DNA of 64,000 nt from NCBI GenBank assembly GCA_001029775.1, contig CP011215.1, positions 274,685 through 338,684 on the forward strand, in the 5' to 3' direction. How positions within the stretch are numbered: position 1 is the stretch's first letter; the number at the start of each line of letters is the position of its first letter. Source of the stretch: Candidatus Campbellbacteria bacterium GW2011_OD1_34_28. Lineage in GTDB: Bacteria > Patescibacteriota > Minisyncoccia > Phycocordibacterales > UBA12079. The notes under the pieces were generated by a model. It searched no databases and was not told where the DNA came from. It saw only the letters and a list, made by a program, of their open reading frames with translations. This document shows, piece by piece, positions 1,163 to 49,080 of the stretch. Position numbers and translations under genes: made by a program.

Positions 1163-1585
1163 TTATTTTTTGATGCCCAAAATATGTTGTTCCTCGGGAG
1201 AAAGTTTTGAAAGGATCTTTTCCCGAATTTTCACCATCTCTTCTTCATCATCAAAGAGTTTTATTGGCTCTACGGAATTATTTATGACATAGCCGACAAG
1301 CCCGTTGGTCAAAACAAAAGCAGGACTTGTCTGGTGATAATTTGCATTAATCTGCACTTTGGAAAATGCTTTTGCTATATCTTCGTCTTTAAAAAATCCC
1401 AAGGAAGTGACCTTTCTCCCGTCTTCATTTGTTTGATAAACTTCTGTCATTTGGAGAACTTTAAAGTTAGAAAGCTCGGCCCCAACCAAATCTGCTAATT
1501 CCACATAGAAACTCTTGTCTGCCACATTGCCTCCATTAGTTAAATGTTTATTTATCTTGCGATATCTTACTTCAGGTACTCTCAA
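1163..1585 (-). CDS. Hypothetical protein (140 aa)
   Basis: Intact ORF followed by a terminator hairpin at 1108-1148; no motif recognised. Confidence 0.45.
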   Translation of the reverse strand: MRVPEVRYRKINKHLTNGGNVADKSFYVELADLVGAELSNFKVLQMTEVYQTNEDGRKVTSLGFFKDEDIAKAFSKVQINANYHQTSPAFVLTNGLVGYVINNSVEPIKLFDDEEEMVKIREKILSKLSPEEQHILGIKK

Positions 1586-1603
1586 AAGTCCAGAATGTAT
1601 ATA

Positions 1604-1690
1604 AAGCCTGCCTGCCGATAGGCAAGTTCATAAAGTTTTTAAAGCCTGCCTGTCGGCAGGCAGGCTCTCCGCAGTGGGACTTATTTATCG
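1604..1690 (+). repeat. Repeat family C (gcctgcctg.cggcaggcaggctctccgca.tg..acttatttat), followed by a terminator at 1725-1758
   Basis: Second copy at 14188-14230, also followed by its own terminator hairpin (14239-14262). Confidence 0.6.
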
Positions 1691-1834
1691 AAAGACCTGA
1701 TTGCCTTCTGAAATAAGCACAAACAAAAAACACTCATTTTGAGTGTTTTTGTTTTAATTGATGACTCGTATGTTAGAATTTAATTAATAGAATTATCGGT
1801 ATGTCATACAATAATATCGTGTTAGTACAAACTT

Positions 1835-2236
1835 ATGAAAAAAATTAATGGTCAAATTGGTTCCGATCTTGGGTTGTTACTCCTGTCATTACTGGGGTGG
1901 GTTAATGTTTTTCATTTTCTTACAGAGTATGATCCTCCGACTCCTGAATTATCAACATTTTACTGGTCATTTTTTTCTATTCTATTAATTGATAGAATAA
2001 TTTCTAAAAAGATTAATAATATACTTTTTTGGAAAGGAGTTTTTGTTTCAGGATTAATTATTTTTATAATAGATAATATAAGATTATTTCCACAACTACT
2101 CGCTTTAAAGCAGATAGCGTATAGTGATAACATCTTTTTATACTTTGCTTTCTCAATAACAGGATTCTTAATCTTTGAAGCTATTATGCTTATGTTTATA
2201 TACAGAAGTTATAAATTTATATCAAAAGGTATTTAA
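1835..2236 (+). CDS. Small multi-pass membrane protein (hypothetical)
   Basis: Four hydrophobic segments; ATG start. Confidence 0.45.
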   Translation: MKKINGQIGSDLGLLLLSLLGWVNVFHFLTEYDPPTPELSTFYWSFFSILLIDRIISKKINNILFWKGVFVSGLIIFIIDNIRLFPQLLALKQIAYSDNIFLYFAFSITGFLIFEAIMLMFIYRSYKFISKGI

Positions 2237-2242
2237 AATAAA

Positions 2243-4165
2243 ATGACTATATTTAATAAAACTTCAATTTTCGTAGTTCCAATAATTATTTTAATAATTG
2301 CTGGATTTTTTGTATTTAGCGGTGAGCAAAAACAAGAAAAAGAAAATAGTGAGGTGCCCGTAGAGAAGGTTACGAATGAAATCAGATTTATTAAAATAAG
2401 AGGGTGCCCCGACGATGCATACAAAGATATTGGCGTGGAGATTGTTAATCCTAAATATTTTATATGTAGAAGCTATCTCACAGACGGCACAAATGTGTAT
2501 TATCATGGCATACGGGCAGTAGCAATCCCTACTCAACCGCTTGCGCCAAGCTTTATTGCTACGTCTTCCCCAGACACAAGCGACAAAGCCCTTATGGAGT
2601 CAACAATAATCAAAGGAGCCGACCCAGAGACTTTTGAAATTATGTATTTCGATGAAAACCTACCTGTGGAGCAGCAAAACCACATGAATACATTCGCGAG
2701 AGATAAAGATTATTTGTATTGGGAAGGAAAGAGATTTGAGGGGCTTGATCCAAACACATTAGTTATATTGGGTAGAGGGTTTGTAAAAGACAAAGACGCA
2801 GTATATTTTTACTGGCGGAAACTTGAAGGATCGGATGCCACAACTTTTGAATTTTTGTGGGATGGGTTTGCGCGGGATAAAAATTTTGTGTACCGCAACA
2901 ATCCTCAACCTGAAATATTTAAAGGGGTTGACCCAGCTACATTTGAGAAAATTGACGATAATTATTTAAAAGACAAAAACGTCGTCTATTACCGACAGGA
3001 GAAAATTGGAGGATCCGACCCTGCAACTTTTGAGATTCTTTTAGGTTCCTATGCAAAAGATAAAAATAATGTGTATATGGATGGAAAGATAATCAATAAT
3101 GCTGACCCAGAGACCTTCTCTTTTTTGACGCACCCGTACCAGAGAGATGGTTATAATTATTTTTCGAAAGATAAAAACAATGTGTATTTTTCTGGAAATA
3201 TAATTTATGGAGCTGATTCAAACACATTCGAATTTATAGATTATCAATATATGAAAGATAAAAATGCTGTTTATTATAATAACGGCAGTAAAAAAATTGA
3301 TGGAGCCGACCCTAAAACATTTGAAGTGTTAGGAGGCGGGTATCTAAAAGACGGGAATTCTGTATGGATTTCTTACGGAGGCGAAGGAGGAGGTGTATCA
3401 TCTCATCGCAAATTAGAAAATGTAGATGCTCTAACTTTTGAGTTTATTGATCGTCAGTATGCACGCGATGTGACAGCAGTATATTGCTCTGGAGATGCTA
3501 TGGAGGGATTTGACTGGGGAAGCGTGGTAATACTTCAGGATAATTATATACGAGATAGCGAGCAAGTTTTCTTTAGATGTAAAAAAGTTGAAGGGGCGGA
3601 TGCAAAATCTTTTGAGGTGTTGGGCTATCAATATTCAAAGGATAAAATAGCAGTTTATTATATAGGCAAAAGAATTGATGGTGTGGATGCAGAGAGTTTT
3701 GAAAATCTGGCATGCAATTATTCAAAAGATAAAAATTCTGTATACAAGACTTCAGGGCAGACGATTTCCAAACTTGATAATTTTGATGCCTCCACATTTC
3801 GTATCATAGGCAATTGTAATCCGTCCGATAAAAATGGTGTGTATACAAACTCGGGAGAAAAAATAGCAGGTGCGGATCCTGGCACTTTCCAATTTTTAGG
3901 AGGAAGCTACAGTAAAGACAAGTATCGTGCCTATTGGAAGGCGATGCCTATTGCTAGCTCGGATACTGCAACATTCAAGTTTCTCAGTGGAGAATTTGCA
4001 AAAGATAACAATACCACATATTACAAAGGAGAAGTGTATGGTGATGAACTAAAGGCAATCTTGAGAGACACAGAAGAAGGGGGTGAACTTATGATCAACC
4101 CGACCCTTCCTCCATATGGACTTATTTACGAACTTAATAATATTGTGCCGACACCCGTTTATTAG
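2243..4165 (+). CDS. DKNYY-repeat protein, N-terminal membrane anchor
   Basis: More than 12 tandem ~35-aa repeats of the form KDKNxVYY...GADPxTFE, characteristic of the DKNYY family; N-terminal TM helix. Confidence 0.65.
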   Translation: MTIFNKTSIFVVPIIILIIAGFFVFSGEQKQEKENSEVPVEKVTNEIRFIKIRGCPDDAYKDIGVEIVNPKYFICRSYLTDGTNVYYHGIRAVAIPTQPLAPSFIATSSPDTSDKALMESTIIKGADPETFEIMYFDENLPVEQQNHMNTFARDKDYLYWEGKRFEGLDPNTLVILGRGFVKDKDAVYFYWRKLEGSDATTFEFLWDGFARDKNFVYRNNPQPEIFKGVDPATFEKIDDNYLKDKNVVYYRQEKIGGSDPATFEILLGSYAKDKNNVYMDGKIINNADPETFSFLTHPYQRDGYNYFSKDKNNVYFSGNIIYGADSNTFEFIDYQYMKDKNAVYYNNGSKKIDGADPKTFEVLGGGYLKDGNSVWISYGGEGGGVSSHRKLENVDALTFEFIDRQYARDVTAVYCSGDAMEGFDWGSVVILQDNYIRDSEQVFFRCKKVEGADAKSFEVLGYQYSKDKIAVYYIGKRIDGVDAESFENLACNYSKDKNSVYKTSGQTISKLDNFDASTFRIIGNCNPSDKNGVYTNSGEKIAGADPGTFQFLGGSYSKDKYRAYWKAMPIASSDTATFKFLSGEFAKDNNTTYYKGEVYGDELKAILRDTEEGGELMINPTLPPYGLIYELNNIVPTPVY

Positions 4166-28293: not shown

Positions 28294-29001
28294 TTAATAT
28301 TTCCTTTGTAAATACACGGTCACAGTTCTTCTCTTAAATGCTTTGCCATGTAACATATGTAGATGAGATTTTTCTATTTTACGAATTTCAAAAAAAGGGG
28401 AGAAAAACTTTTTTATCTCATCGGTCGTCCATGTGTGTTCTTGCACACCAATTCTTGGGTGAATATAAGATCCTTTTTCTTGAGAGGGATTTTTTTCTAG
28501 TAATCTTTTTGCATGCAGGTCTCCTTCGCGAAGAAAAGATTTAAAAAATAACCAACCATTTGGTTTTATTATTCTGTTTAATTCTTCAAGTAAAAACTCT
28601 CTTTCGCTTTCGTTTAGAAAATGTGAAGACATCATATCCAGCACTATGTCTGTGGACTCGTTTGGTAAATCAATTTCTCCTGCGATAGAGCGGACTTTCC
28701 ATTCTATGGAAGGGTTTGTTTTTTTTGCTTGGTTTATAGCTTCTTCTGAAATGTCGTATCCAACACCTTTTATATTAAATTGGTTTGTCATATAAACAAG
28801 ATTGCGACCATTACCACATCCCAGATCAAGAACAAGAGAATTTTTATCAAGAGTTGTTTCGGGTTCGTTTCTGTTTAACCACCTAAAGAATTTTAAAAGA
28901 TCCTCGGATGGTTTTACCGAGAGATTTAGATGTTCTCCTTTTTGATATTCTTTATTCCAGAATGTTTTAGAGCTTTTTCCTTTTTTATTATTTTTCTTCA
29001 T
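28294..29001 (-). CDS. Class I SAM-dependent methyltransferase
   Basis: Motif I LDLGCGNGRN. Confidence 0.7.
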   Translation of the reverse strand: MKKNNKKGKSSKTFWNKEYQKGEHLNLSVKPSEDLLKFFRWLNRNEPETTLDKNSLVLDLGCGNGRNLVYMTNQFNIKGVGYDISEEAINQAKKTNPSIEWKVRSIAGEIDLPNESTDIVLDMMSSHFLNESEREFLLEELNRIIKPNGWLFFKSFLREGDLHAKRLLEKNPSQEKGSYIHPRIGVQEHTWTTDEIKKFFSPFFEIRKIEKSHLHMLHGKAFKRRTVTVYLQRKY

Positions 29002-32723: not shown

Positions 32724-34424
32724 ATGATTAAGAATGAGTTGGAAAAAGTAATAAAGTCCGCTGTGTCCGAGTTGGGTATAGAAGCAGGGAAGGTTCATCT
32801 GGAACACCCTGTTGATTTAAAAATGGGTGATTATTCTACTAATGTGGCGATGGTTTATGCAAAACAGATAGGACAGAATCCTCGCGAACTTGCTGAAAAA
32901 ATTGTCGAAAGAATTAAGGCAATTCCAACAGCAACCGGGTTGCTGTTAGGCGTGGAGGTGGCGGGTGCTGGGTTTATAAATTTTTATTTAAAGTCAGAGT
33001 TTTTTGCTGACTCTGTAAAAGATGTTTTAGAAAAAAAAGATGATTACGGAAAAAATGAAAAGTTGAAAGGTAAAAAAATGATGGTGGAATACACCGACCC
33101 AAATCCTTTCAAAGAAATTCATATCGGACATCTAATGACCAATGCTATTGGAGAATCTATTGCAAGAATTATTTCTGCTCAGGGAGCGCAGGTTATTCGT
33201 GCAAACTACCAAGGTGATGTAGGAATGCATGTTGCCAAAGCGGTTTATGGACTTTTGAAATTGGGATACGACGGTTCAAAGATAGGCGAGCTGGCGAGTG
33301 CTTATGCATATGGTGCAAAAGATTTTGATGAAAATAGAAAAGAAATAACCGAAATAAATAAAAAAATTTATGAAAGAAGTGATGAAAAAATAAATGCTCT
33401 TTATGATATTGGTAGAGAAGCAAGTTTGCGTTATTTTGAAGTAATTTATAAAAAATTGGGAATGTTTCCTACAAAACAAGGTAAACATTTTGATGAATAT
33501 TTTTTTGAGAGTGAAACAGCACCGATTGGAAAAGAATTTGTTAAAGGAAATATAGGAAAAGTTTTTAACGAGAGCGAAGGCGCTGTAATCTTTGAGGGAG
33601 AAAAATATGGATTGCATACCCGTGTCTTTTTGAATTCCGAAGGTATTCCTACTTATGAAGCAAAGGATTTGGGACTTATAAAAACAAAGTTTGAAAAGTA
33701 TCCCGACTTGGATTTGTCTATTTCAATAACAGGAAATGAAGTAAACGAATATTTTAAGGTGATGTTAAAATCTGCTGAATTGATAGAACCACAATTGGCA
33801 GAAAAAACAAAACACATTTCACATGGAATGTTGCGATTGCCAGAAGGAAAAATGTCGTCACGAACAGGAGATGTAATAAGTGCCGTTGGATTGATGGCGG
33901 AAATAGAAAAAGAAGTCCAAAAGAGAATGGAAAAGAAAGAAAGTCTTGATTATGATAAGACTGTCGAACAAGTAACATTGTCTGCGATCAAATATTCTAT
34001 TTTGAAATCTGCCAACGGAAAAGATGTTGTCTTTGATATGAATAAATCCGTATCTATTGAAGGAAACTCTGGACCTTATTTGCAATACACAAATGCGAGA
34101 ATAAATTCTATTTTGGAAAAAGCAAAACAAGAAAATATAAAAAGTTGGGAGCAAGGCACCCAAATAGAAATATCCGATGTGGAGAAAATTCTTTATCGTT
34201 TTCCAGAGGTGGTTGAGAGAGTGGGTGAAGAATACGAACCTCATTATATTGCGGTATATTTGTCAGAATTAGCGCAAGCATTTAACTCTTATTATTCCGC
34301 AAACAAAATTGTAGATAGCGGAGATATTAATTCTCCTTATCGTACAGCTCTTGCTCAAGCAGTAGGGCAGGTGATTAAAAATGGGCTGTATCTTTTGGGA
34401 ATTGAGTCTCCTGAGAAGATGTAA
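32724..34424 (+). CDS. argS: Arginine--tRNA ligase
   Basis: HIGH (HIGHLMT), C-terminal anticodon-binding DALA-like domain. Confidence 0.9.
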   Translation: MIKNELEKVIKSAVSELGIEAGKVHLEHPVDLKMGDYSTNVAMVYAKQIGQNPRELAEKIVERIKAIPTATGLLLGVEVAGAGFINFYLKSEFFADSVKDVLEKKDDYGKNEKLKGKKMMVEYTDPNPFKEIHIGHLMTNAIGESIARIISAQGAQVIRANYQGDVGMHVAKAVYGLLKLGYDGSKIGELASAYAYGAKDFDENRKEITEINKKIYERSDEKINALYDIGREASLRYFEVIYKKLGMFPTKQGKHFDEYFFESETAPIGKEFVKGNIGKVFNESEGAVIFEGEKYGLHTRVFLNSEGIPTYEAKDLGLIKTKFEKYPDLDLSISITGNEVNEYFKVMLKSAELIEPQLAEKTKHISHGMLRLPEGKMSSRTGDVISAVGLMAEIEKEVQKRMEKKESLDYDKTVEQVTLSAIKYSILKSANGKDVVFDMNKSVSIEGNSGPYLQYTNARINSILEKAKQENIKSWEQGTQIEISDVEKILYRFPEVVERVGEEYEPHYIAVYLSELAQAFNSYYSANKIVDSGDINSPYRTALAQAVGQVIKNGLYLLGIESPEKM

Positions 34425-34925: not shown

Positions 34926-35185
34926 ACTTAAAAGATAAAAGATGACCACAGCAAGACCGTGGTCATTTTTTGTTTGACTTTATGTTGTGTTTGAGTATTA
35001 TGTACACATAAATGTTCTTGATTAAATCTTGAAAAGAGATGCATTTGTAAGTATTTTCCGGCGTGGAAGACATTGGTTTTCCGGAAAACCAGAGTCAAAA
35101 CTTTCAGATGTTTAGCGAACGAACCGGTGTGAGGACACTGTCGCTGGTCTTTTCTCTCCTCATCTCTTTTCATCCTTGTTGTGTT

Positions 35186-35264
35186 GGGGCGTAGCTCAAT
35201 CTCTCTCTTGGCAGAGCGCCTGTTTGAGAACAGGAAGATGGTCGGTTCGAATCCGTCCGCTCCA
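35186..35264 (+). tRNA. tRNA-like element / probable degenerate tRNA (Ala-type GGGGC acceptor with G3:U70)
   Basis: GGGGCGTAGCTCAA[tctctctctt]GGCAGAGCGCCTGTTTGAGAACAGG...GGTTCGAATCC...CGCTCCA. The D-loop is ~16 nt, the T-stem has a mismatch and the anticodon loop reads GAG. Followed by a terminator at 35275-35300. Confidence 0.3.
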
Positions 35265-35299
35265 ATCAAAAATAAAAGTCCGCCTGTGGCGGACTTTTT

Positions 35300-36022
35300 C
35301 TATTGGTGGAGATTTTCTCTCCGCTCAGAAATATAGGCTCTCTTGATAGCGGTGTATTGGTCCACCGATCCATCCATAATACCTTTGTATGTTGGAGAAA
35401 AATCATGCCATAGATCGATAGAATCGGCTGATTGTAAAGAAAATCTTTCTACACTGCCGGTGTATTTTACTGGTGAAATAAAATATTCACCAAAATTACC
35501 AAAAGAACTGCGGAAAGTTCGGGGTCCAAATAATGGCCAGATGATGTAAACACCTTCGCCGACGCCCCAATAGGCAAGGCCTTGGTCGATGTCTTCTTCA
35601 TCTGGCGGGTTAAATTTTACTGGTCGAAAAATTCCGCCGATTCCAAAAAAAGAATTGTTAATTGTTTCATTCATTGTGAGACCGACAATTTCTCCTTTTC
35701 CTTGCATTGCTGCTCCAAAAAGACGAGTTGGAAATGAAAGGTTGTAAAAGAAATTTCCGATACAGTCTCGGACAGGCTCCGGAATTTTTTCGTAAAGATT
35801 TTTGTTGATTGGTTCCAGTACCCACATATAGAATTTGTCGTTGACGTAAAATGTGATTCTGTTCAGTGGTTCAAAAGGGTCCCATACTTCACACACTGTT
35901 TGCTCTTCGTCTGAAAGAGGGTCTTCATAAAAAACGCACCCTTCCGGTTTTTGAGCACAACCGATTTGAGTTGTAACCAATAATAAAAAAATTGACGAAA
36001 GAACCCATTCTTTTTTCTGCAT
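35300..36022 (-). CDS. MlaA/VacJ-family lipoprotein
   Basis: Signal peptide plus lipobox (QIGC), then DPFEPLNR...NFFYNLSFP...MQGKG...TMNETINNSFFGIGG, a close match to the MlaA domain; GC higher than the genome background. Confidence 0.65.
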   Translation of the reverse strand: MQKKEWVLSSIFLLLVTTQIGCAQKPEGCVFYEDPLSDEEQTVCEVWDPFEPLNRITFYVNDKFYMWVLEPINKNLYEKIPEPVRDCIGNFFYNLSFPTRLFGAAMQGKGEIVGLTMNETINNSFFGIGGIFRPVKFNPPDEEDIDQGLAYWGVGEGVYIIWPLFGPRTFRSSFGNFGEYFISPVKYTGSVERFSLQSADSIDLWHDFSPTYKGIMDGSVDQYTAIKRAYISERRENLHQ

Positions 36023-36125
36023 TTGCCCCTCCTTTTTTGTCGATGATAGACGGTTCTAGTATTTAGCGTATAGTAGTTTTGAATAATCTCAAAGGGGATA
36101 AATTTTGTTTAGATATTAAAAACAT

Positions 36126-36154
36126 TTGACATTTTTCTGTTTAGAATCTATCCT
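36126..36154 (+). promoter_or_regulatory. Sigma70-like promoter (TTGACA, 17 nt spacer, TATCCT) driving the small-ORF/rSAM operon
   Basis: ttgacatttttctgtttagaatctatcct about 55 bp upstream of the AGGAGG RBS. Confidence 0.45.
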
Positions 36155-36208
36155 TTTAAAAGGACTAGGTACTATTACGAAAATCTTTTAACCAGAGGAG
36201 GCGGTATC

Positions 36209-36310
36209 ATGAAGAGAAATGTGGCAAAAAAGAGCGGGAAGAAAATACCCCGTTCGAAAAAAAAGATTCGTGTGCGTATCGGCAAGGGTAGTTGCAGTAT
36301 TTGCGACTGA
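36209..36310 (+). CDS. 33-aa basic Cys-containing peptide (candidate rSAM substrate/precursor): MKRNVAKKSGKKIPRSKKKIRVRIGKGSCSICD
   Basis: Perfect AGGAGG RBS 7 nt upstream of the ATG; not in the ORF track (<60 aa); followed by a hairpin/terminator and the rSAM-SPASM gene. Confidence 0.4.
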   Translation: MKRNVAKKSGKKIPRSKKKIRVRIGKGSCSICD

Positions 36311-36320
36311 TCTCGGCAAA

Positions 36321-36347
36321 CAAGGAGGGCTCGCCCTCCTTGTTTTC
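36321..36347 (+). terminator. Inter-cistronic hairpin/attenuator (caaggaggg-ctcg-ccctccttg + TTTTC)
   Basis: 9-bp perfect stem then a T-run, between the small ORF and the rSAM gene. Confidence 0.5.
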
Positions 36348-36369
36348 AAATCAAGACAAGGGAGAAAAA

Positions 36370-37455
36370 ATGGATTGCAATACTGAAACACCAACATTAG
36401 ATGTTGAAATAGGTGATACTGTTTACGCAATTGAATTTGGACAGATTCAGATTGAAATTACCGGACTTTGTAATATGCATTGTCAGCATTGCAGGGCGTC
36501 GAATCAGCCTGTCGAGGAAATGAGTATTGATAATATCGTAAAAATTATCAAATTTGCTCGGCAGTTCAGCCCCAATTACAAAGAAATTGTCGTTTCAGGC
36601 GGTGAGCCAACATTGCATAGAGATTTTTCTGGCGTGTTGAAAGCTGTGAGAAAAAATGGCGGTGATTTTGTCACCCTTACTACAAACGGTTCCATTTTTA
36701 ATAAAACACATCTCGACTTGATCGAAAGCCTGGATTTTAAGCGCTTTGTTTTATCGGTCAGTATCGACAGTCTTGACGCCAAAGAGCACGACACTTTTCG
36801 TGGGTATCAGGGAGCGTTTGATAAAGCCGTTCGATCTTTGTCGTTAATTGCAGAAAGTAAACTTCCCAACATCGTTGCCTCGATGCGTTCTACCATCAAG
36901 GCTACACAAATCGACGATATGGAAGCTATGGCAGAATATGCTCAAAAAATAGGTTGTCAAAGAGTTAGTTTCTCTGCTATTCATCCGGCTGGTCGTGCCA
37001 TCTTGCGTCCTGATTTGTGGATGACCTCTGAGCAGAAACTCGCTTTTCTCAAAAACATCTACGCATTGAAGGAAAAATTTCCCGAGATGAACATCACGAC
37101 CAACGACCCTCTTAAATGTTTGTTGCGTGGCAAGAGTGATGTCGGAGGAGAAGACGAACTAGTCTTTGATGGTTGCGGAGCTGCGGCGATTACTTTCAAT
37201 GTAAATGCTGACGGGGTAATGACCCCTTGTGCGCTTCTGGATGTTCCGATGATGAACACGAAAAATCTTTCCATTGAGGAAATCACCGAACAGTATCGAA
37301 AAAACTGGATTGTGAGGAATATGCTCACTATGAATTTCGACGGTAAGTGTGGAACTTGCCCGACGAAATATCAGTGCGGTGGTTGTCGTGCCAGAGCATT
37401 GATTCAAAACGGCGACATGTTTGGCGAAGATCCTCATTGTTGGATTACACCGTAA
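36370..37455 (+). CDS. Radical SAM enzyme with C-terminal SPASM domain (peptide-modifying maturase-like)
   Basis: CNMHCQHC rSAM cluster, GGEPTL, C-terminal CGAAA...C...CGTCPTKYQCGGCRARA SPASM cysteines. Confidence 0.75.
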   Translation: MDCNTETPTLDVEIGDTVYAIEFGQIQIEITGLCNMHCQHCRASNQPVEEMSIDNIVKIIKFARQFSPNYKEIVVSGGEPTLHRDFSGVLKAVRKNGGDFVTLTTNGSIFNKTHLDLIESLDFKRFVLSVSIDSLDAKEHDTFRGYQGAFDKAVRSLSLIAESKLPNIVASMRSTIKATQIDDMEAMAEYAQKIGCQRVSFSAIHPAGRAILRPDLWMTSEQKLAFLKNIYALKEKFPEMNITTNDPLKCLLRGKSDVGGEDELVFDGCGAAAITFNVNADGVMTPCALLDVPMMNTKNLSIEEITEQYRKNWIVRNMLTMNFDGKCGTCPTKYQCGGCRARALIQNGDMFGEDPHCWITP

Positions 37456-37460
37456 TTTTT

Positions 37461-37496
37461 GCAAGCCACCCTTTGGATAAGGGGTGGCTTTTTTGT
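37461..37496 (+). terminator. Intrinsic terminator after the rSAM gene
   Basis: gcaagccaccc-tttggataa-ggggtggcttttttg. Confidence 0.6.
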
Positions 37497-37524
37497 TTGC
37501 CCGTTTTAGTGTATTATTTTTTCT

Positions 37525-40500
37525 ATGACTAACGAAAATAATATTAATAATAAATCTGAGACAGCCAAGAATGAAGAAAACATTATAAAGTTTTGGCAGG
37601 AGAACAAAATTTTTGAAAAATCCGTAGAGAAAGAAGCTCCGAACGGCGAGTTTACTTTTTATGACGGACCTCCTTTTGCTACCGGTCTTCCGCACTATGG
37701 GCATCTTTTGCCTGGGACGATGAAAGATATTATTCCTCGTTATCAAACAATGAAAGGCAAAAGAGTTAATCGTCGTTGGGGTTGGGATTGTCACGGTCTA
37801 CCGATTGAGAATTTGATTGAAGATGAATTGGGACTTAAAACAAAAAAAGATATTTTTGAACATGGAGTAGAAAAATTTAATCAGTCTGCAAAAGACAGCG
37901 TTCTTCGTTATGATGCTGATTGGAAAAAGATTATTCCAAGAACGGGAAGGTGGGTGGATATGTCGCACAGTTACAAGACTATGGACACGACCTATTCAGA
38001 AACTATTTGGTGGATTTTTAAAACTGTCTACGAAAAGAAATTAATTTATGAAGGACATAAAGCAATGCATTTGTGCCCTCGATGTGAAACAACACTTTCT
38101 AATTTTGAGGTTAATCAAGGGTACAAAGATATAAAAGATATTTCGGTTACTGCAAAATTTGAAGTTGAACATACCAATAGTACGAATGATACTAATGATA
38201 CGAATAATACAAATACTAAGACTTATATTTTAGCTTGGACTACTACACCATGGACTTTGCCTGGTAATGTTGCTTTGGCTGTCGGAAAAGATATCGATTA
38301 TGTAGAAGTAGAAGTTTTGCCAGAATCAGATATTAGAGAAGTTGGAAACACGGATTATAAAGTCCTTCCAATAGAATATTATATTTTAGCTAAAGAAAAA
38401 TTAGAAAGTGTTTTTGGGGGTCGTCGTTATAGCGTTAAGGAAGAATTTAAAGGATCAGAGCTTGTTGGAAAATCTTATAAACCGGTTTTTGATTATTATC
38501 AAAACGAAGATTTAGAAAATAAAGAAAACGGTTGGAAAATTTACGGGGCGGATTTTGTGACGACCGAGGACGGAACGGGAATTGTTCACATCGCTCCGGC
38601 TTTTGGATCGGACGATATGGAATTGGGAAAGAAAGAAAATTTGCCGTTTATTCAGCATGTCACAGTGGACGGAAAATTTAAACCTGAAGTAAAAGACTTT
38701 GTCGGTTTGACAGTAAAGCCAAAAGACACAAAAGAAGATGCCAGTGCGCACCTGAGAACAGATATTGAGATTGTCAGATGGCTACAAGAACACGACAAGT
38801 TTTTCTCGAAGGAAAATTTGGTCCACTCCTATCCTCATTGTTGGAGATGCAATACACCGCTTTTGAATTATGCGACATCATCGTGGTTTTTGAAGGTGAC
38901 CGATTTGAAGGATAAATTGTTGGAGGTAAATAGCAAAATTCACTGGGTGCCGGAACACATCAGAGACGGAAGATTTGGAAAATGGTTGGAAGGGGCGAGA
39001 GATTGGGCGATTTCCAGAACGCGTTTTTGGGGTGCACCTTTACCAGTTTGGAAATGTAAAGAATGTGACAATGTTCATGTACTTGGTTCTATTGAAGACC
39101 TTAAACAAAAAACAAGAGGCACTAACAAATATTTTGTAATGCGACACGGCGAAGCGGAAAACAATACTTTGAATGTTTCCAGCACGAAAGCAGAAAATCC
39201 CCATCACTTAACTGACAAAGGAAAAGAACAGGTATTGGGTGCGATTGCAAAATTGAAAGAAAAGAAAATTGATTTTATTATCTCGTCTCCTTTTGTTAGG
39301 ACAAAAGAGACGACTGAAATGATTGCGAAAGAAATCGGTATCAACGAAATAATTTTTGATGACAGATTGATAGAGGCACAGGTAGGTGATTTTGAAGGAA
39401 AAGATATTTCCGAATACAGAAATTATACGAAATCTTTGGAAGAAAAATTTTTGCAAACTCCGCCTAACGGAGAAAGTTTGACCGAGTTAAAAAACAGAGT
39501 AGGGGATTTTATTTACGAGATTGATAAAAAATATTCCGACAAAAATATTTTGATTGTTACTCATGAATATCCAGCTTGGTTGTTGATTGCCGTGACAAAA
39601 GGACTAAATGGCACAGAGGCGGTTGAATTGAAACACAAAGAAAATCTTTTTGAAAATGCCGACATAAAAGAATTGGATTTTGCACCAATTTCTCATAACA
39701 AAAATTATGAGTCTGATTTGCATATGCCATATATAGACGAGATAAAATTTGCTTGTGAATGTGGAGGAGAGATGGAAAGAATCAAAGAAGTTTTTGATTG
39801 TTGGTTTGAATCTGGCGCGATGCCTTATGCTTCGAATCATTATCCTTTTGAAAATCTGGACAAATTTAATCCTGAAAAAGGTATTGGTTTTCCGGCTGAT
39901 TTTATTGCTGAAGGAACCGATCAGACCAGAGGGTGGTTTTATACATCATTGGTTTTGTCGACCGCATTGTTTGAAAAAGCGTCTTTCCAAAATGTAATTG
40001 TAAACGGAATGATAATGGCAGAGGACGGCAAAAAAATGTCAAAGAGTCTCAGAAATTATCCCGATATTTCGTATATGTTGGATAAATACGGAGCGGATGC
40101 TCTAAGATACTATATTATTTCTTCTCCAGCTGTTCGTGCCGAGGATTTAAATTTTTCTGAAAAGGGAGTAGATGAGATTTTGAAAAAAATTATTTTGAAA
40201 ACAAAAAATGTTTTGTCTTTTTATGAATTGTATAAAGACGAAATCTCTGCAGAGGTTAAACCTCTGCAAAGCGACAATGTTCTTGATAGATGGATTATTG
40301 CTCGTTTGAATCAATTAATTGTAGAAGTTACGACAGGATTGGACAATTACGAATTAGATAGAGCATCCAGACCGATTGTTGATTTTGTCGAAGATCTTTC
40401 TACTTGGTATATTCGTCGTTCAAGAGATAGGTTTAAGGGGGAAGACGAAAAAGACAAGAATTTTGCAATAGAAACGACAGGTTTTGTTTTGAAAGAATTA

Positions 40501-41115
40501 ACAAAAGTAATGGCTCCGTTTATGCCGTTTGTCGCCGAAGAGGTTTATCAAAGAGTAAAAGGTAATGAAGGAAAAGAAAGTGTCCATTTAGAAAACTGGT
40601 CAGAAGTTGAAAAAGTGGACGAAAAGATTTTGGAAGAAATGAAAAGGGTGAGAGATATTGTGTCGCTGGCTTTGGAGGCGAGAGCAAAGACGGGGATAAA
40701 GGTGAGACAACCGCTTCAAAAGCTGACAGCTTACAGCCAACAGCCTACAGCAATGGACGAAGAATTGGTTGGTGTCATTAAAGATGAGGTGAATGTGAAG
40801 GATGTGGTATTTGAAAAAGGAGATGAAGAGAAGGTTGAATTAGATATAGAAATCACCCCGGAACTAAAAGCCGAAGGGCAATATAGAGAACTGCTTCGAA
40901 ATATTCAGAGGATGAGAAAAGATGCAAACCTTGTGCCGAACGATTTGGTAGAGTTGGAAGTAGAAACAGATGAAGTAGGAAAAGAATTGATAGAAAAATT
41001 TGCCGAAGATTTGAAACGTACGGCTGGATTAGAAAAAATAGAATTTGAGGGTGTCGATGACGGAGAAAATATAAAAATCGACAATCTAACTTTTAAAATA
41101 AAATTAGAAAAATAA
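37525..41115 (+). CDS. ileS: Isoleucine--tRNA ligase (type 2) carrying an inserted histidine-phosphatase (PGAM-like) domain
   Basis: HYGHLLP (HIGH), KMSKSLRN, WxCxxC zinc region, editing domain. Residues encoded ~39100-39700 read VMRHGEAENN...LTDKGKEQ...FIISSPFVRTKET...NGESLTEL...ILIVTHEYPAW, a PGAM branch-1 signature. Confidence 0.85.
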   Translation: MTNENNINNKSETAKNEENIIKFWQENKIFEKSVEKEAPNGEFTFYDGPPFATGLPHYGHLLPGTMKDIIPRYQTMKGKRVNRRWGWDCHGLPIENLIEDELGLKTKKDIFEHGVEKFNQSAKDSVLRYDADWKKIIPRTGRWVDMSHSYKTMDTTYSETIWWIFKTVYEKKLIYEGHKAMHLCPRCETTLSNFEVNQGYKDIKDISVTAKFEVEHTNSTNDTNDTNNTNTKTYILAWTTTPWTLPGNVALAVGKDIDYVEVEVLPESDIREVGNTDYKVLPIEYYILAKEKLESVFGGRRYSVKEEFKGSELVGKSYKPVFDYYQNEDLENKENGWKIYGADFVTTEDGTGIVHIAPAFGSDDMELGKKENLPFIQHVTVDGKFKPEVKDFVGLTVKPKDTKEDASAHLRTDIEIVRWLQEHDKFFSKENLVHSYPHCWRCNTPLLNYATSSWFLKVTDLKDKLLEVNSKIHWVPEHIRDGRFGKWLEGARDWAISRTRFWGAPLPVWKCKECDNVHVLGSIEDLKQKTRGTNKYFVMRHGEAENNTLNVSSTKAENPHHLTDKGKEQVLGAIAKLKEKKIDFIISSPFVRTKETTEMIAKEIGINEIIFDDRLIEAQVGDFEGKDISEYRNYTKSLEEKFLQTPPNGESLTELKNRVGDFIYEIDKKYSDKNILIVTHEYPAWLLIAVTKGLNGTEAVELKHKENLFENADIKELDFAPISHNKNYESDLHMPYIDEIKFACECGGEMERIKEVFDCWFESGAMPYASNHYPFENLDKFNPEKGIGFPADFIAEGTDQTRGWFYTSLVLSTALFEKASFQNVIVNGMIMAEDGKKMSKSLRNYPDISYMLDKYGADALRYYIISSPAVRAEDLNFSEKGVDEILKKIILKTKNVLSFYELYKDEISAEVKPLQSDNVLDRWIIARLNQLIVEVTTGLDNYELDRASRPIVDFVEDLSTWYIRRSRDRFKGEDEKDKNFAIETTGFVLKELTKVMAPFMPFVAEEVYQRVKGNEGKESVHLENWSEVEKVDEKILEEMKRVRDIVSLALEARAKTGIKVRQPLQKLTAYSQQPTAMDEELVGVIKDEVNVKDVVFEKGDEEKVELDIEITPELKAEGQYRELLRNIQRMRKDANLVPNDLVELEVETDEVGKELIEKFAEDLKRTAGLEKIEFEGVDDGENIKIDNLTFKIKLEK

Positions 41116-46092: not shown

Positions 46093-47367
46093 ATGAAATA
46101 TAAAAAAAAGATTTTAAAAAACGGATTAAGGATAATCACTGTCCCTATGAAAGATAATAATACTGTCACGGCTTTGGTGTTGGTAGAAGCAGGTTCTAAA
46201 TATGAGGAAAAAAATAATAACGGTATTTCACATTTTTTAGAACATGTTTGTTTTAAGGGAACAAAAAACCGTCCCAATCCAGGAGATATTTCCAGAGAAC
46301 TTGATGGTTTGGGAGCAGAAACAAACGCTTTCACATCGCACGAATTTACAGGTTATTATGCAAAGGCTCATTCAAAACATACTCATAAATTGATTGAAAT
46401 AATTTCTGATTTGTATTTAAACCCTGTTTTCAATGAAAATGAAATAAACAAAGAAAAAGGTGTGATTATTGAAGAGATGAATATGTATGAAGATTTGCCG
46501 ATGAGAAAAGTGCATGATGTTTTGATGAATTTGTTGTACGGAGATCAACCTGCTGGGATGACCATTGGAGGCGATCCAAATTTTGTCAAAATAGCTCTTC
46601 CTAAAGATTTTATTGAATATAGGCATAAACATTATGTTGCCTCTGCGACAACAGTTGTTGTGGCGGGGAATATAAACGAAAGTGCTGTTATAAAAGATAT
46701 TGAAAAAAGATTTGAGAATATTTCGGAGTCTAAAAAATATAAAAAATTAAAGGTAAAAGAATCTCAAAAAGATTCACAAATTGCTATCAAACATAAAAAA
46801 CTTGATCAAACTCACTTGGTTTTGGCAGTGAGAGCTTTTGATACATTCAAAAAAGAGAGTGCTGTCGTTTCTGTTATCGCTGGTTTGTTGGGTAGTGGCA
46901 TGAGTTCGCGTCTTTTTACAAAATTACGAGAAGAAATGGGTGTTTGTTATTATGTTCGCTCAGGTAACAACACTTTTACCGATCACGGTTATTTGGACGT
47001 ATCTGTGGGATCGGATAATAAAAGAGCAAAAGAAGTAATAACCGCTATTTTGGAAGAATTTAAAAAATTGAAGACAGAAATAGTTTCTGAAAAAGAATTG
47101 AAAAAAACAAAAGAATATCTTATTGGAGGGATGACGCTATCTTTGGAATCGTCTGATTCATTCGCAGAGTTTTATGGAATTCAGGATATTTTAAAAGAGA
47201 CCATTGAAAGTCCAAAAGAGAAAGCGGACAGAATTAAAAAAGTGACAGCAGGAGATATAAAGAAAACTGCAAACAAAATTTTTACCAATGCCAATTTAAA
47301 TCTTGCCATCGTTGGTGGAGTGGATGAAAAACAAAAACAAGAATTATTAAAACTATTAAAGCTGTAA
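46093..47367 (+). CDS. M16-family zinc peptidase (insulinase-like)
   Basis: HFLEHVCFKGT (HxxEH) and downstream E. Confidence 0.8.
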   Translation: MKYKKKILKNGLRIITVPMKDNNTVTALVLVEAGSKYEEKNNNGISHFLEHVCFKGTKNRPNPGDISRELDGLGAETNAFTSHEFTGYYAKAHSKHTHKLIEIISDLYLNPVFNENEINKEKGVIIEEMNMYEDLPMRKVHDVLMNLLYGDQPAGMTIGGDPNFVKIALPKDFIEYRHKHYVASATTVVVAGNINESAVIKDIEKRFENISESKKYKKLKVKESQKDSQIAIKHKKLDQTHLVLAVRAFDTFKKESAVVSVIAGLLGSGMSSRLFTKLREEMGVCYYVRSGNNTFTDHGYLDVSVGSDNKRAKEVITAILEEFKKLKTEIVSEKELKKTKEYLIGGMTLSLESSDSFAEFYGIQDILKETIESPKEKADRIKKVTAGDIKKTANKIFTNANLNLAIVGGVDEKQKQELLKLLKL

Positions 47368-47973: not shown

Positions 47974-49080
47974 ATGACGATACCTTGGGTGAAGGGGCTT
48001 GCCCCAGCTTGTTTAGGCTTATATACTAATGGTATGGATTCAAATTCAAATATCAATATAACAATTACTTCGGGAACAATCATCAGGTCTATTTTGTTCG
48101 TTTTGCTTGTTTGGTTATTATGGTTTTTGCAAGGCATCGTTTTGGTGATTTTGACAGCAGTTGTAATTGCATCTTCAATTGAACCTCTGGCAAGATGGCT
48201 CGTTAAATACAAGATTCCGAGAGTTTTGGCGGTTATTCTAATTTATGTTTCTTTTGCAGGAATTGTTGTTGGAACATTTTTTGCTTTTGTTCCTCTTTTG
48301 TTAGATGATGCAGCAGGGCTCATTTCTTCATTGCCAGCATATTTTGACTCGATAACTCTTTGGGGCCCTGTGGCCGATTTTAGTGCCGATTTTTCTTTGA
48401 AAAGTTTATTAACAGAATTTAGATCCAGTATTACTGGCGCAACAGGAAGTTTGTTTCAAACATTGAGCGTTATTTTCGGAGGTGCTTTAAACTTTGTCTT
48501 GATTATTGTGCTGTCTTTTTATTTGTCTGTTCAAGAGACTGGAATTCGAGATTTTCTAAAAGTAGTCACTCCTTTAAAACAAGAAAAATATGTTATTGAT
48601 CTTTGGAGACGAACACAGGAAAAAATAGGTCTCTGGATGCAGGGACAATTGTTGTTAGGGATAATTATTGGTATTTTAGTTTATTTGGGATTGACGATTC
48701 TTGGTGTTAAATATGCTTTCTTTTTAGCAATACTGGCTGCTGTCGCAGAATTGATTCCTTTGTTCGGTCCTGTGGTTGCTTCTTTGCCTGCTATTGTGAT
48801 TGGTTTTGCGGATGGTGGAGCTACTATGGGGTTATTTGTTATAGGTCTTTATATAATTATTCAACAATTTGAGAATCATTTAATTTATCCTTTAGTTGTT
48901 AAAAAGGTTGTCGGGGTGCCTCCGCTTTTGGTTATTTTGGCTTTGATTATTGGTGCAAAACTAGCTGGATTTTTGGGACTAATTTTATCAGTTCCGATTG
49001 CGGCCGCTCTTATGGAGTTTGTTCACGATATTGAAAATGATAGAAGAAGTCAGTTAAAAAATCCCCATCAAAATGATTAA
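47974..49080 (+). CDS. AI-2E family transporter (PerM/UPF0118)
   Basis: 8 TM helices, LIPLFGPVVASLPAI motif. Confidence 0.75.
   Translation: MTIPWVKGLAPACLGLYTNGMDSNSNINITITSGTIIRSILFVLLVWLLWFLQGIVLVILTAVVIASSIEPLARWLVKYKIPRVLAVILIYVSFAGIVVGTFFAFVPLLLDDAAGLISSLPAYFDSITLWGPVADFSADFSLKSLLTEFRSSITGATGSLFQTLSVIFGGALNFVLIIVLSFYLSVQETGIRDFLKVVTPLKQEKYVIDLWRRTQEKIGLWMQGQLLLGIIIGILVYLGLTILGVKYAFFLAILAAVAELIPLFGPVVASLPAIVIGFADGGATMGLFVIGLYIIIQQFENHLIYPLVVKKVVGVPPLLVILALIIGAKLAGFLGLILSVPIAAALMEFVHDIENDRRSQLKNPHQND

Follow-up and report, generated by a model that had tools for sequence, protein, structure and literature searches.

We analysed a 64,000-nt stretch of the genome of Candidatus Campbellbacteria bacterium GW2011_OD1_34_28 (contig CP011215.1; hereafter the window), a member of the candidate phyla radiation (CPR). 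In it, an open reading frame (ORF) for a 33-amino acid cysteine-containing peptide lies just upstream of a gene for a radical S-adenosylmethionine (rSAM) enzyme with a SPASM domain. The two genes, spaced 60 nt apart, probably form a small operon resembling those for peptides that are made on ribosomes and modified after translation (RiPPs). The features of this cassette are as follows.

36126-36154, forward strand: promoter-like site, TTGACA (36126-36131), a 17-nt spacer and TATCCT (36149-36154), with 10 of 12 consensus matches.
36196-36201, forward strand: Shine-Dalgarno sequence AGGAGG of the peptide ORF, 7 nt 5' of the ATG at 36209, read from the sequence.
36209-36310, forward strand: precursor-like peptide ORF of 33 amino acids, MKRNVAKKSGKKIPRSKKKIRVRIGKGSCSICD followed by a stop, from the sequence, the ORF list and homologous ORFs in relatives.
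36272-36307, forward strand: conserved peptide core VRIGKGSCSICD with a Cys-x-x-Cys-Asp signature, from invariant columns and codon-position counts.
36318-36345, forward strand: GC-rich hairpin between the two genes, AAACAAGGAGGGCTCGCCCTCCTTGTTT, with a 12-bp stem, a 4-nt loop and a weak U-tract.
36360-36364, forward strand: Shine-Dalgarno-like GGGAG of the rSAM gene, 5 nt 5' of its ATG, read from the sequence.
36370-37455, forward strand: radical SAM/SPASM enzyme of 361 amino acids, without a RiPP recognition element (RRE) domain, GenBank AKM84026.1.
36469-36492, forward strand: radical-SAM cluster motif C34-X3-C38-X2-C41, from the translation and invariant columns.
37174-37440, forward strand: SPASM auxiliary-cluster cysteines C269, C287, C327, C330, C336, C339 and C357, and the nearly invariant C250.
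37463-37490, forward strand: canonical intrinsic terminator closing the two-gene operon, a 12-bp stem followed by TTTTTGTTT, from a terminator scan.

An earlier note on this DNA had proposed much of this layout. The AGGAGG ribosome-binding site and the rSAM enzyme with its CxxxCxxC motif and SPASM cysteine array are present as it described, the latter with invariant motifs and a matching fold. Its consensus-like promoter can be located, as one of two sites that share the top score (both 10/12) within 35000-38500. The number of such sites in the region did not exceed that in shuffled sequences (9 vs. 7.9 ± 2.7), and the promoter is plausible, without significance on its own. Relatives likewise have a TTGACA box ahead of the peptide; its position is -83 in the window and -160 to -179 in the main CPR clade. 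A start of the rSAM gene at TTG 36292 was rejected in favour of ATG 36370. The peptide ORF itself seems to be unannotated in the GenBank record, because the accessions from AKM84023 (arginyl-tRNA synthetase, ArgRS) to AKM84026 (the rSAM enzyme) are all taken by other ORFs. Its exact sequence was found only among JGI/Logan gene calls, where it is unnamed.

The enzyme matched the radical SAM family PF04055 with 76 bits against a cut-off of 29.5, and C34, C38 and C41 are invariant in the family alignment. SPASM domains bind two auxiliary [4Fe-4S] clusters through the motif CX9-15GX4C ... CX2CX5CX3C ... C. In the window enzyme this motif reads C269-X12-G-X4-C287 ... C327-X2-C330-X5-C336-X2-C339 ... 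C357, with X2 instead of the canonical X3 as the last spacing. These seven cysteines are invariant in 37 sequences, and an eighth, C250, occurs in at least 90% of them. The Pfam SPASM model (PF13186) reached 16.7 bits over residues 269-331, under its gathering threshold of 21.5; the domain is established by the cysteine motif together with the modelled fold, and cluster binding is predicted.

We utilized AlphaFold2 to predict the structure of the enzyme, obtaining a predicted local distance difference test (pLDDT) value of 93. The best fold matches were SkfB, SuiB (template modelling score, TM, 0.75), CteB, PqqE, the sulfatase-maturating enzyme anSME (TM 0.67-0.69) and ChlB, with TM values of 0.63-0.75. 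The nearest sequences in the PDB were those of SkfB (E = 8e-14, over the rSAM core only) and PqqE. We found no Pfam match to PqqD, and the model contains only a short β-hairpin at residues 10-21 in this part of the protein. Because only about 30 residues precede the rSAM motif, the enzyme has no RRE domain.

Family models placed the enzyme outside all curated groups. All 80 NCBIfam matches fell far under their cut-offs, including NirJ2 (144 of 500 bits), AhbD (134/500), GeoRSP (132/400), PapB (NF047865; 80.8/340), MftC (75.7/265), PqqE (70.6/381), StsB (66/625) and MoaA, and the models for anSME and for SCIFF maturases were outside the 25 best of the 80. A housekeeping identity, which by the earlier note would have spoken against its RiPP proposal, was not borne out; judged from sequence and model, the enzyme is a SPASM peptide-maturase-like protein of an uncurated subfamily and belongs to no recognisable housekeeping family. 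The best-scoring curated models, those of the haem and haem d1 enzymes AhbD and NirJ, reached less than one third of their cut-offs. Unlike these enzymes, the window enzyme has no tetrapyrrole or haem-pathway genes in the examined neighbourhoods of its family, and a substrate of peptide nature is favoured by the conserved ORF upstream. The label "AdoMet-dependent heme synthase", which some pipelines attach to family members (proteins P0014 and P0090), is probably an over-annotation, given the AhbD score. A PADLOC match to the anti-phage viperin pVip was also rejected, since the similarity (60 bits) is confined to residues 26-199, the generic core of rSAM proteins. A scan of IMG/VR returned no family member, with a generic rSAM protein of 27% identity as the best match. 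The close family itself is large and tight, consisting of enzymes of about 359 amino acids that are 57-70% identical and occur in metagenome-assembled genomes (MAGs) of Patescibacteria/CPR.

We then analysed the conservation of the peptide among close enzyme homologues with upstream DNA, to which all linkage counts refer. A short ORF with the conserved C-terminus was present upstream of the enzyme gene on the same strand at 14 of 14 genome loci, and the metagenome loci likewise all carried it, giving about 50 loci in total. The peptides end in [KR][VI][KR]VRIGKGSCxICD followed by the stop, and the ORF lies 20-207 nt upstream of the enzyme. Two seeming exceptions turned out to be the variants KVSVGKNVCRTCDSPSG and VNIGRNSCNICS, each followed by the stop. 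In reverse look-ups that started from the peptides, an rSAM enzyme of 360 amino acids was found next door every time. The linkage of precursor and enzyme is obligate in both directions. The earlier note had proposed to check whether homologous rSAM genes keep a small ORF in front of them, and they do: at every close locus, in the reciprocal look-ups and, with a diverged core, beside enzymes of 32-45% identity. A profile search, led by a longer version of the ORF, recovered 36 called peptides in databases, none informatively named, with D, N or S as the last residue.

Conservation is concentrated in the core VRIGKGSCSICD, in which 11 of 12 residues are invariant in the close family. Over its 12 codons, minor-allele counts across 33 distinct loci were 17, 8 and 163 at codon positions 1, 2 and 3; therefore purifying selection acts on the translated peptide and not on the RNA. 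The N-terminal part varies in length and charge. Peptides range from 21 to 35 amino acids, with net charges from -5 to +12, and the "extremely basic body" noted earlier holds for the window peptide, the most basic of all, as a trait of its lineage rather than of the family. Pfam and NCBIfam searches at E = 10 gave no match for the peptide. A 33-codon ORF with a ribosome-binding site is not significant by itself, and this one is more than chance because it is conserved elsewhere. The idea of a chance open frame, whose conservation would stem from an RNA or DNA element, is consistent with the short length and with the apparent lack of annotation in the deposited genome. It is practically refuted by the codon-position counts and further opposed by the conserved stop position and ribosome-binding site (GGAGG is invariant at the same spacing in aligned relatives) and by Rfam, whose only matches in the window were tRNAs; we give it almost no weight. 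With its coding signature and obligate adjacency, the locus shows the general hallmark of RiPPs, a ribosomal precursor beside a modifying enzyme.

More distant relatives retain the arrangement. Representatives clustered at 50% comprised two core clusters (>440 bits), followed by about 50 enzymes at 32-45% identity and then by generic scores. An upstream short ORF was found for five of six sampled distant enzymes, and its core diverges in step with the enzyme. At 45% enzyme identity the peptide ends in RLRVSMGDDACRTCDVNGFPPRTVQR (core CRTCD); at 41% the whole peptide is MKTRRRIKSGKHACGRCSD (CGRCSD); and at 36, 35 and 32% the peptides end in VTIEKNACCTCGSFK (CCTCGSFK), VEVLNNTCSKCSGSWK (CSKCSGSWK) and TLNSSCSTSGDYK (CSTSGDYK), each directly followed by a stop. 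For the sixth locus (L071), which has only 137 nt of upstream DNA, no peptide was found. All share the first Cys in C-x-x-[C/S], with h-x-h and three residues that are small or polar ahead of it, and in one of these peptides CxxS replaces CxxC. In several lineages (L052 and L069) a tail follows Cxx C-Asp, so that Asp need not be the C-terminal residue, and chemistry that depends on a free C-terminal carboxylate is disfavoured. Two loci also carry a second, unrelated rSAM system, namely a PqqD protein paired with a 309-amino acid rSAM/SPASM enzyme 2 kb upstream (L156:327-1540) and a 485-amino acid rSAM protein directly upstream (L067:1039-2496).

The cassette also occurs in MAGs labelled as DPANN archaea. 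One such contig (L064) encodes the diphthine synthase Dph5 (L064:11856-12587, reverse strand; 172 bits, cut-off 114), along with TrmB and a D-aminoacyl-tRNA deacylase of the DTD2 type. On the strength of these three genes, the cassette is truly present in an archaeon (L064 and its relatives). In a rough neighbour-joining tree the enzymes from archaeal contexts nest within a bacterial clade, and the window enzyme sits with its near-identical relative L022 on a long branch of its own. Within the main CPR clade a non-coding leader can be aligned across MAGs labelled as different candidate phyla, while the genes flanking the cassette change from locus to locus, which suggests horizontal spread of the whole cassette. 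Judged from these sequences, its distribution looks patchy and horizontally spread rather than core.

Taken together, we consider it probable that the RRE-less SPASM enzyme acts on the 33-amino acid peptide as its substrate, and that the two genes constitute a minimal two-gene RiPP-like operon in Campbellbacteria. The RiPP-like reading proposed earlier is supported at the level of sequence. We infer the pairing of enzyme and substrate from the strict, bidirectional linkage in both domains of life, the co-divergence of peptide core and enzyme, and the fold class of the enzyme. The peptide would be translated, as the substitution pattern supports. Its variable, charged N-terminal part may act as a loosely constrained leader, and the invariant C-terminal h-x-h-G-x-x-x-C-x-x-C-(D/N/S) may serve both as recognition element and as modification site, with chemistry most likely centred on the first Cys. 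In most relatives a dedicated 154-amino acid methyltransferase would add a methyl group, a step that the window version would lack. Since no protease or exporter is linked to the cassette, the product may remain at full length inside the cell or depend on general machinery.

The missing RRE also suggests another role for the peptide, as a cluster-ligating or substrate-presenting partner in the manner of PqqD, with the true substrate, whether protein, RNA or metabolite, encoded elsewhere. The enzyme has 361 amino acids with its rSAM motif from residue 34, the CxxC pair could ligate a cluster, and for other systems an auxiliary function has been proposed for small proteins encoded directly upstream of SPASM enzymes (PMC8939145). 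However, a peptide of 21-35 amino acids with a low-complexity, variable N-terminus has neither the size nor the order for a chaperone fold, the sole constrained part is a Cys-containing 12-mer with the typical look of a SPASM substrate, and no second conserved short ORF or other candidate substrate recurs near the cassette. An accessory role is thus improbable in our view.

If the peptide is the substrate, our leading but tentative guess at the product is a short thioether that joins the first Cys to the fourth residue after it, which is Asp in the window. A parallel is PapB, which crosslinks Cys-X3-Asp, and the window core C-S-I-C-D has this spacing. The PapB/PapA (freyrasin) system and other ranthipeptide systems also share with the window a SPASM rSAM enzyme beside a short Cys-containing precursor. 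In contrast to PapB, the window enzyme has no RRE and scored far below the PapB model. PapA contains six motifs (repeated CX3D), whereas the window peptide has two cysteines and one C-x-x-C-D per peptide, and in this family the core is invariant across lineages while the acceptor can be N, S, G or shifted by one position. Alternatives to a thioether of this kind include an alpha-carbon sactionine, formylglycine-type oxidation, epimerisation or something new.

Another related enzyme, anSME, resembles the window enzyme in size (about 360-370 amino acids), in its rSAM domain with a full eight-Cys SPASM domain, in its lack of an RRE and in fold. The target of anSME is a Cys or Ser within a short motif; one distant peptide of the family has CxxS. 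Unlike anSME, the window enzyme has a dedicated peptide of 21-35 amino acids as its substrate candidate, not a sulfatase; the anSME substrate motif C/S-x-P/A-x-R is absent from the window peptide, and the anSME model was not among the 25 best-scoring of the 80.

The earlier note had called the architecture of the locus typical of SCIFF, ranthipeptide and sactipeptide loci. SkfB and CteB are indeed top fold and sequence matches, and the precursor-hairpin-maturase layout is common to these systems. Membership in these families was not upheld: the maturases CteB, SkfB, AlbA and StsB carry an N-terminal RRE or peptide-binding domain, which the window enzyme does not, and the PapB and sactipeptide maturase (StsB) models scored 81 vs. 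340 and 66 vs. 625 bits, respectively. The same note's remark that the peptide is unlike SCIFF holds true, since SCIFF peptides have six Cys in about 45 amino acids, the window peptide has two, and no Pfam or NCBIfam model matches it. The graspetide loci with SPASM enzymes in CPR genomes are a different, ATP-grasp-based system.

Several observations weigh against a substrate peptide carrying a thioether. In a typical antibiotic RiPP the leader is conserved and the core variable, and the pattern of conservation is the reverse in this family. The cassette neighbourhoods contained neither an RRE nor genes for a leader peptidase, a transporter or immunity. Auxiliary cluster I is fully ligated in anSME and open in the thioether-forming CteB; with eight cysteines in the SPASM region, it may by analogy be fully ligated in the window enzyme. 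At the acceptor position, D, N, S or G may occur, or the acceptor is shifted by one residue, sometimes with a tail, and this variability equally fits a residue-agnostic alpha-carbon link, a modification of Cys, or a PapB-like link to the beta-carbon of Asp.

The invariant core, the variable leader and the lack of export genes look, by analogy, more like a cofactor-type system such as pyrroloquinoline quinone (PQQ) or mycofactocin, or like a small intracellular modified peptide, than like a diversifying antibiotic. In a rival reading, the peptide would give rise to a peptide-derived cofactor or another housekeeping small molecule instead of a secreted natural product, with the rSAM enzyme modifying the invariant C-terminal residues and general peptidases later freeing a small redox-active or metal-binding moiety. 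As in the mycofactocin (MftA/MftC) and PQQ (PqqA/PqqE) systems, a short precursor with an invariant C-terminal core and a variable leader is encoded directly upstream of a SPASM enzyme. Enzyme identity stays at 60-70% across deep lineages, transporter and immunity genes are not linked, and PqqE ranks with the best matches in both sequence and fold. The window also encodes an M16 peptidase with a weak match to the PqqF C-lobe (46093-47367, forward strand), 9 kb downstream of the cassette; it is not recurrent near the cassette elsewhere. On the other hand, PqqD/MftB, peptidase and tailoring genes are lacking in the window family, except for the one methyltransferase, and no dedicated peptidase, oxidoreductase or client enzyme recurs by the cassette. 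The precursor cores, GVY or E..Y in those systems, are unrelated to that of the window family, and the enzyme scores for MftC and PqqE remained far from membership (76 vs. 265 and 71 vs. 381 bits). Tails after Cxx C-Asp (L052 and L069) show that the free C-terminal carboxylate used by MftC is not required, and the distribution is patchy and horizontal-looking, not core. A cofactor precursor is therefore unlikely, if somewhat less so than an accessory peptide.

Next, we compared the elements that accompany the two genes. In the window, a folding energy of -20.6 kcal/mol was obtained for 36308-36372 (z = -2.5); 3 of 200 shuffles did equally well. The stem-loop with a T-run proposed in the earlier note thus exists as a hairpin at 36318-36345; its tail has only 4 T in 8, and the scan gave no intrinsic-terminator call for it. 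A hairpin of -13 to -36 kcal/mol begins 1-22 nt after the peptide stop in all 24 bacterial-type loci tested, so that the proposed precursor-attenuator-maturase layout is kept there, with an attenuator that is a weak terminator at best. It is probably a leaky terminator or an mRNA-stabilising stem, and it would terminate part of the transcripts or stabilise the peptide mRNA, so that peptide would exceed enzyme. None of the five archaeal-type loci has a hairpin after the peptide, where the gap to the enzyme gene is 21-45 nt.

These data bear on the idea that the ORF is a regulatory leader peptide, an arrest or attenuation upstream ORF that steers read-through of the hairpin and thereby expression of a housekeeping rSAM enzyme. 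The ORF always lies immediately 5' of the enzyme on the same strand, the hairpin is within reach of a ribosome terminating at the stop, and arrest peptides have conserved C-termini. However, an attenuator does not explain the conservation of the peptide, because the archaeal loci keep the same peptide without the hairpin. The conserved residues are Cys-centred and co-diverge with an enzyme class known for Cys chemistry, the enzyme matches no housekeeping family, and the main clade already has a separate structured 5' leader as a regulatory element. We regard a leader peptide as very unlikely.

In the main CPR clade, this structured leader is a conserved element of about 140 nt that precedes the peptide ORF (L001:283-435, aligned with 13 further loci) and sits behind the distal TTGACA box, which is found at -160 to -179. 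The window lacks this element and has a leader of only about 50 nt (36155-36208). The leader folds into a bulged hairpin with an outer stem GGGU/ACCC, a conserved asymmetric loop CAAUAAAGUUAAA and an inner 9-bp stem UGAAAAUCC/GGAUUUUCA. Covariation supports this fold well: 92.9% of cells are paired, compared with 24-58% when the alignment is slid, and 23 cells carry double changes, compared with 7.1 ± 2.0 in shuffles. No Rfam model matched the main-clade leader in the relatives, and we consider it a candidate new cis-regulatory RNA.

The sole recurrent neighbour is a class I SAM methyltransferase (PF13489) of 154-155 amino acids, found in 40 loci either 3' of the enzyme or 5' of the peptide (e.g., L019:9153-9620 and L020:7323-7790). 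Its family comprises 214 proteins, all from CPR and all with generic names. Neither the archaeal-type loci nor any part of the 64-kb window encodes it. A window methyltransferase at 28294-29001 (reverse strand) was considered as a displaced orthologue and rejected, since the two share only the generic SAM-binding fold (hhalign probability 50%). To define the acceptor of the cassette methyltransferase, we applied family models, a PDB profile search and a fold search (model pLDDT 96), all of which returned only generic small-molecule class I enzymes (JHAMT, PMT, BioC and TehB), among which O-, N- and S-methylation are indistinguishable. No protease, transporter, immunity gene, PqqD-like gene, oxidoreductase or client enzyme recurred beside the cassette in the neighbourhoods compared.

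These elements allow a bolder version of the substrate hypothesis. The cassette might produce a so far unknown, sequence-invariant modified peptide or peptide-derived cofactor by a new RRE-less radical-SAM chemistry on the C-x-x-C-Asp terminus. Promoter, structured leader RNA, peptide, hairpin, enzyme and methyltransferase might then have moved together by horizontal transfer among CPR bacteria and into DPANN archaea. We consider this combination speculative and rather doubtful as a whole. If true, it would tie the function to the ultra-small, episymbiotic lifestyle and not to ordinary antibiosis.

CPR bacteria and DPANN archaea have tiny genomes, for which few or no biosynthetic clusters are generally reported. 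One survey found no biosynthetic clusters in its Patescibacteria MAGs (PMC11613949). Searches of the open-access full-text literature, including the motif string, returned no description of the cassette, and Pfam, NCBIfam and Rfam contain no model covering the peptide, the enzyme subfamily, the methyltransferase or the leader RNA. Peptides modified by rSAM/SPASM enzymes are well known as a kind; this family differs by its RRE-less architecture, its invariant C-x-x-C-Asp core and its distribution over CPR plus DPANN. A strictly conserved peptide-plus-radical-SAM cassette across two domains would be among the few lineage-typical specialised products of these organisms, and the invariance of its core hints at a role as cofactor or at a target that is conserved. 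Enzymologists would gain an easy system for new Cys-centred radical chemistry, in which a compact SPASM enzyme without an RRE recognises and modifies a motif of 12 residues. For annotation, the cassette represents a conserved gene missing from deposited records, next to an enzyme sometimes mislabelled as a haem synthase.

Some further genes of the window deserve mention. The cassette adjoins the gene for isoleucyl-tRNA synthetase (IleRS; 37525-41115, forward strand), with ArgRS (32724-34424) a few kb off, and the same neighbours occur in two archaeal lineages (L064:7127-9907 and 1561-3255; L011/L057). We found no evidence for co-transfer of IleRS with the cassette: the two IleRS proteins are only about 40% identical, and the adjacency may be a coincidence. 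The window IleRS (1196 amino acids) carries a histidine-phosphatase/dPGM-like insert at residues ~531-722, which splits the IleS match in two; residues 535-702 score 87 bits with NF038349 and 74 bits with the ribazole phosphatase model. This insert is lacking in the archaeal IleRS of L064. An AI-2E family transporter (47974-49080, forward strand) lies in the region 9-11 kb downstream of the cassette and is not recurrent near it elsewhere. MlaA is an outer-membrane lipid-asymmetry component of diderm bacteria, and the gene at 35300-36022 (reverse strand) encodes an MlaA/VacJ-type lipoprotein (PF04333, 154 bits), which is odd in a CPR organism.

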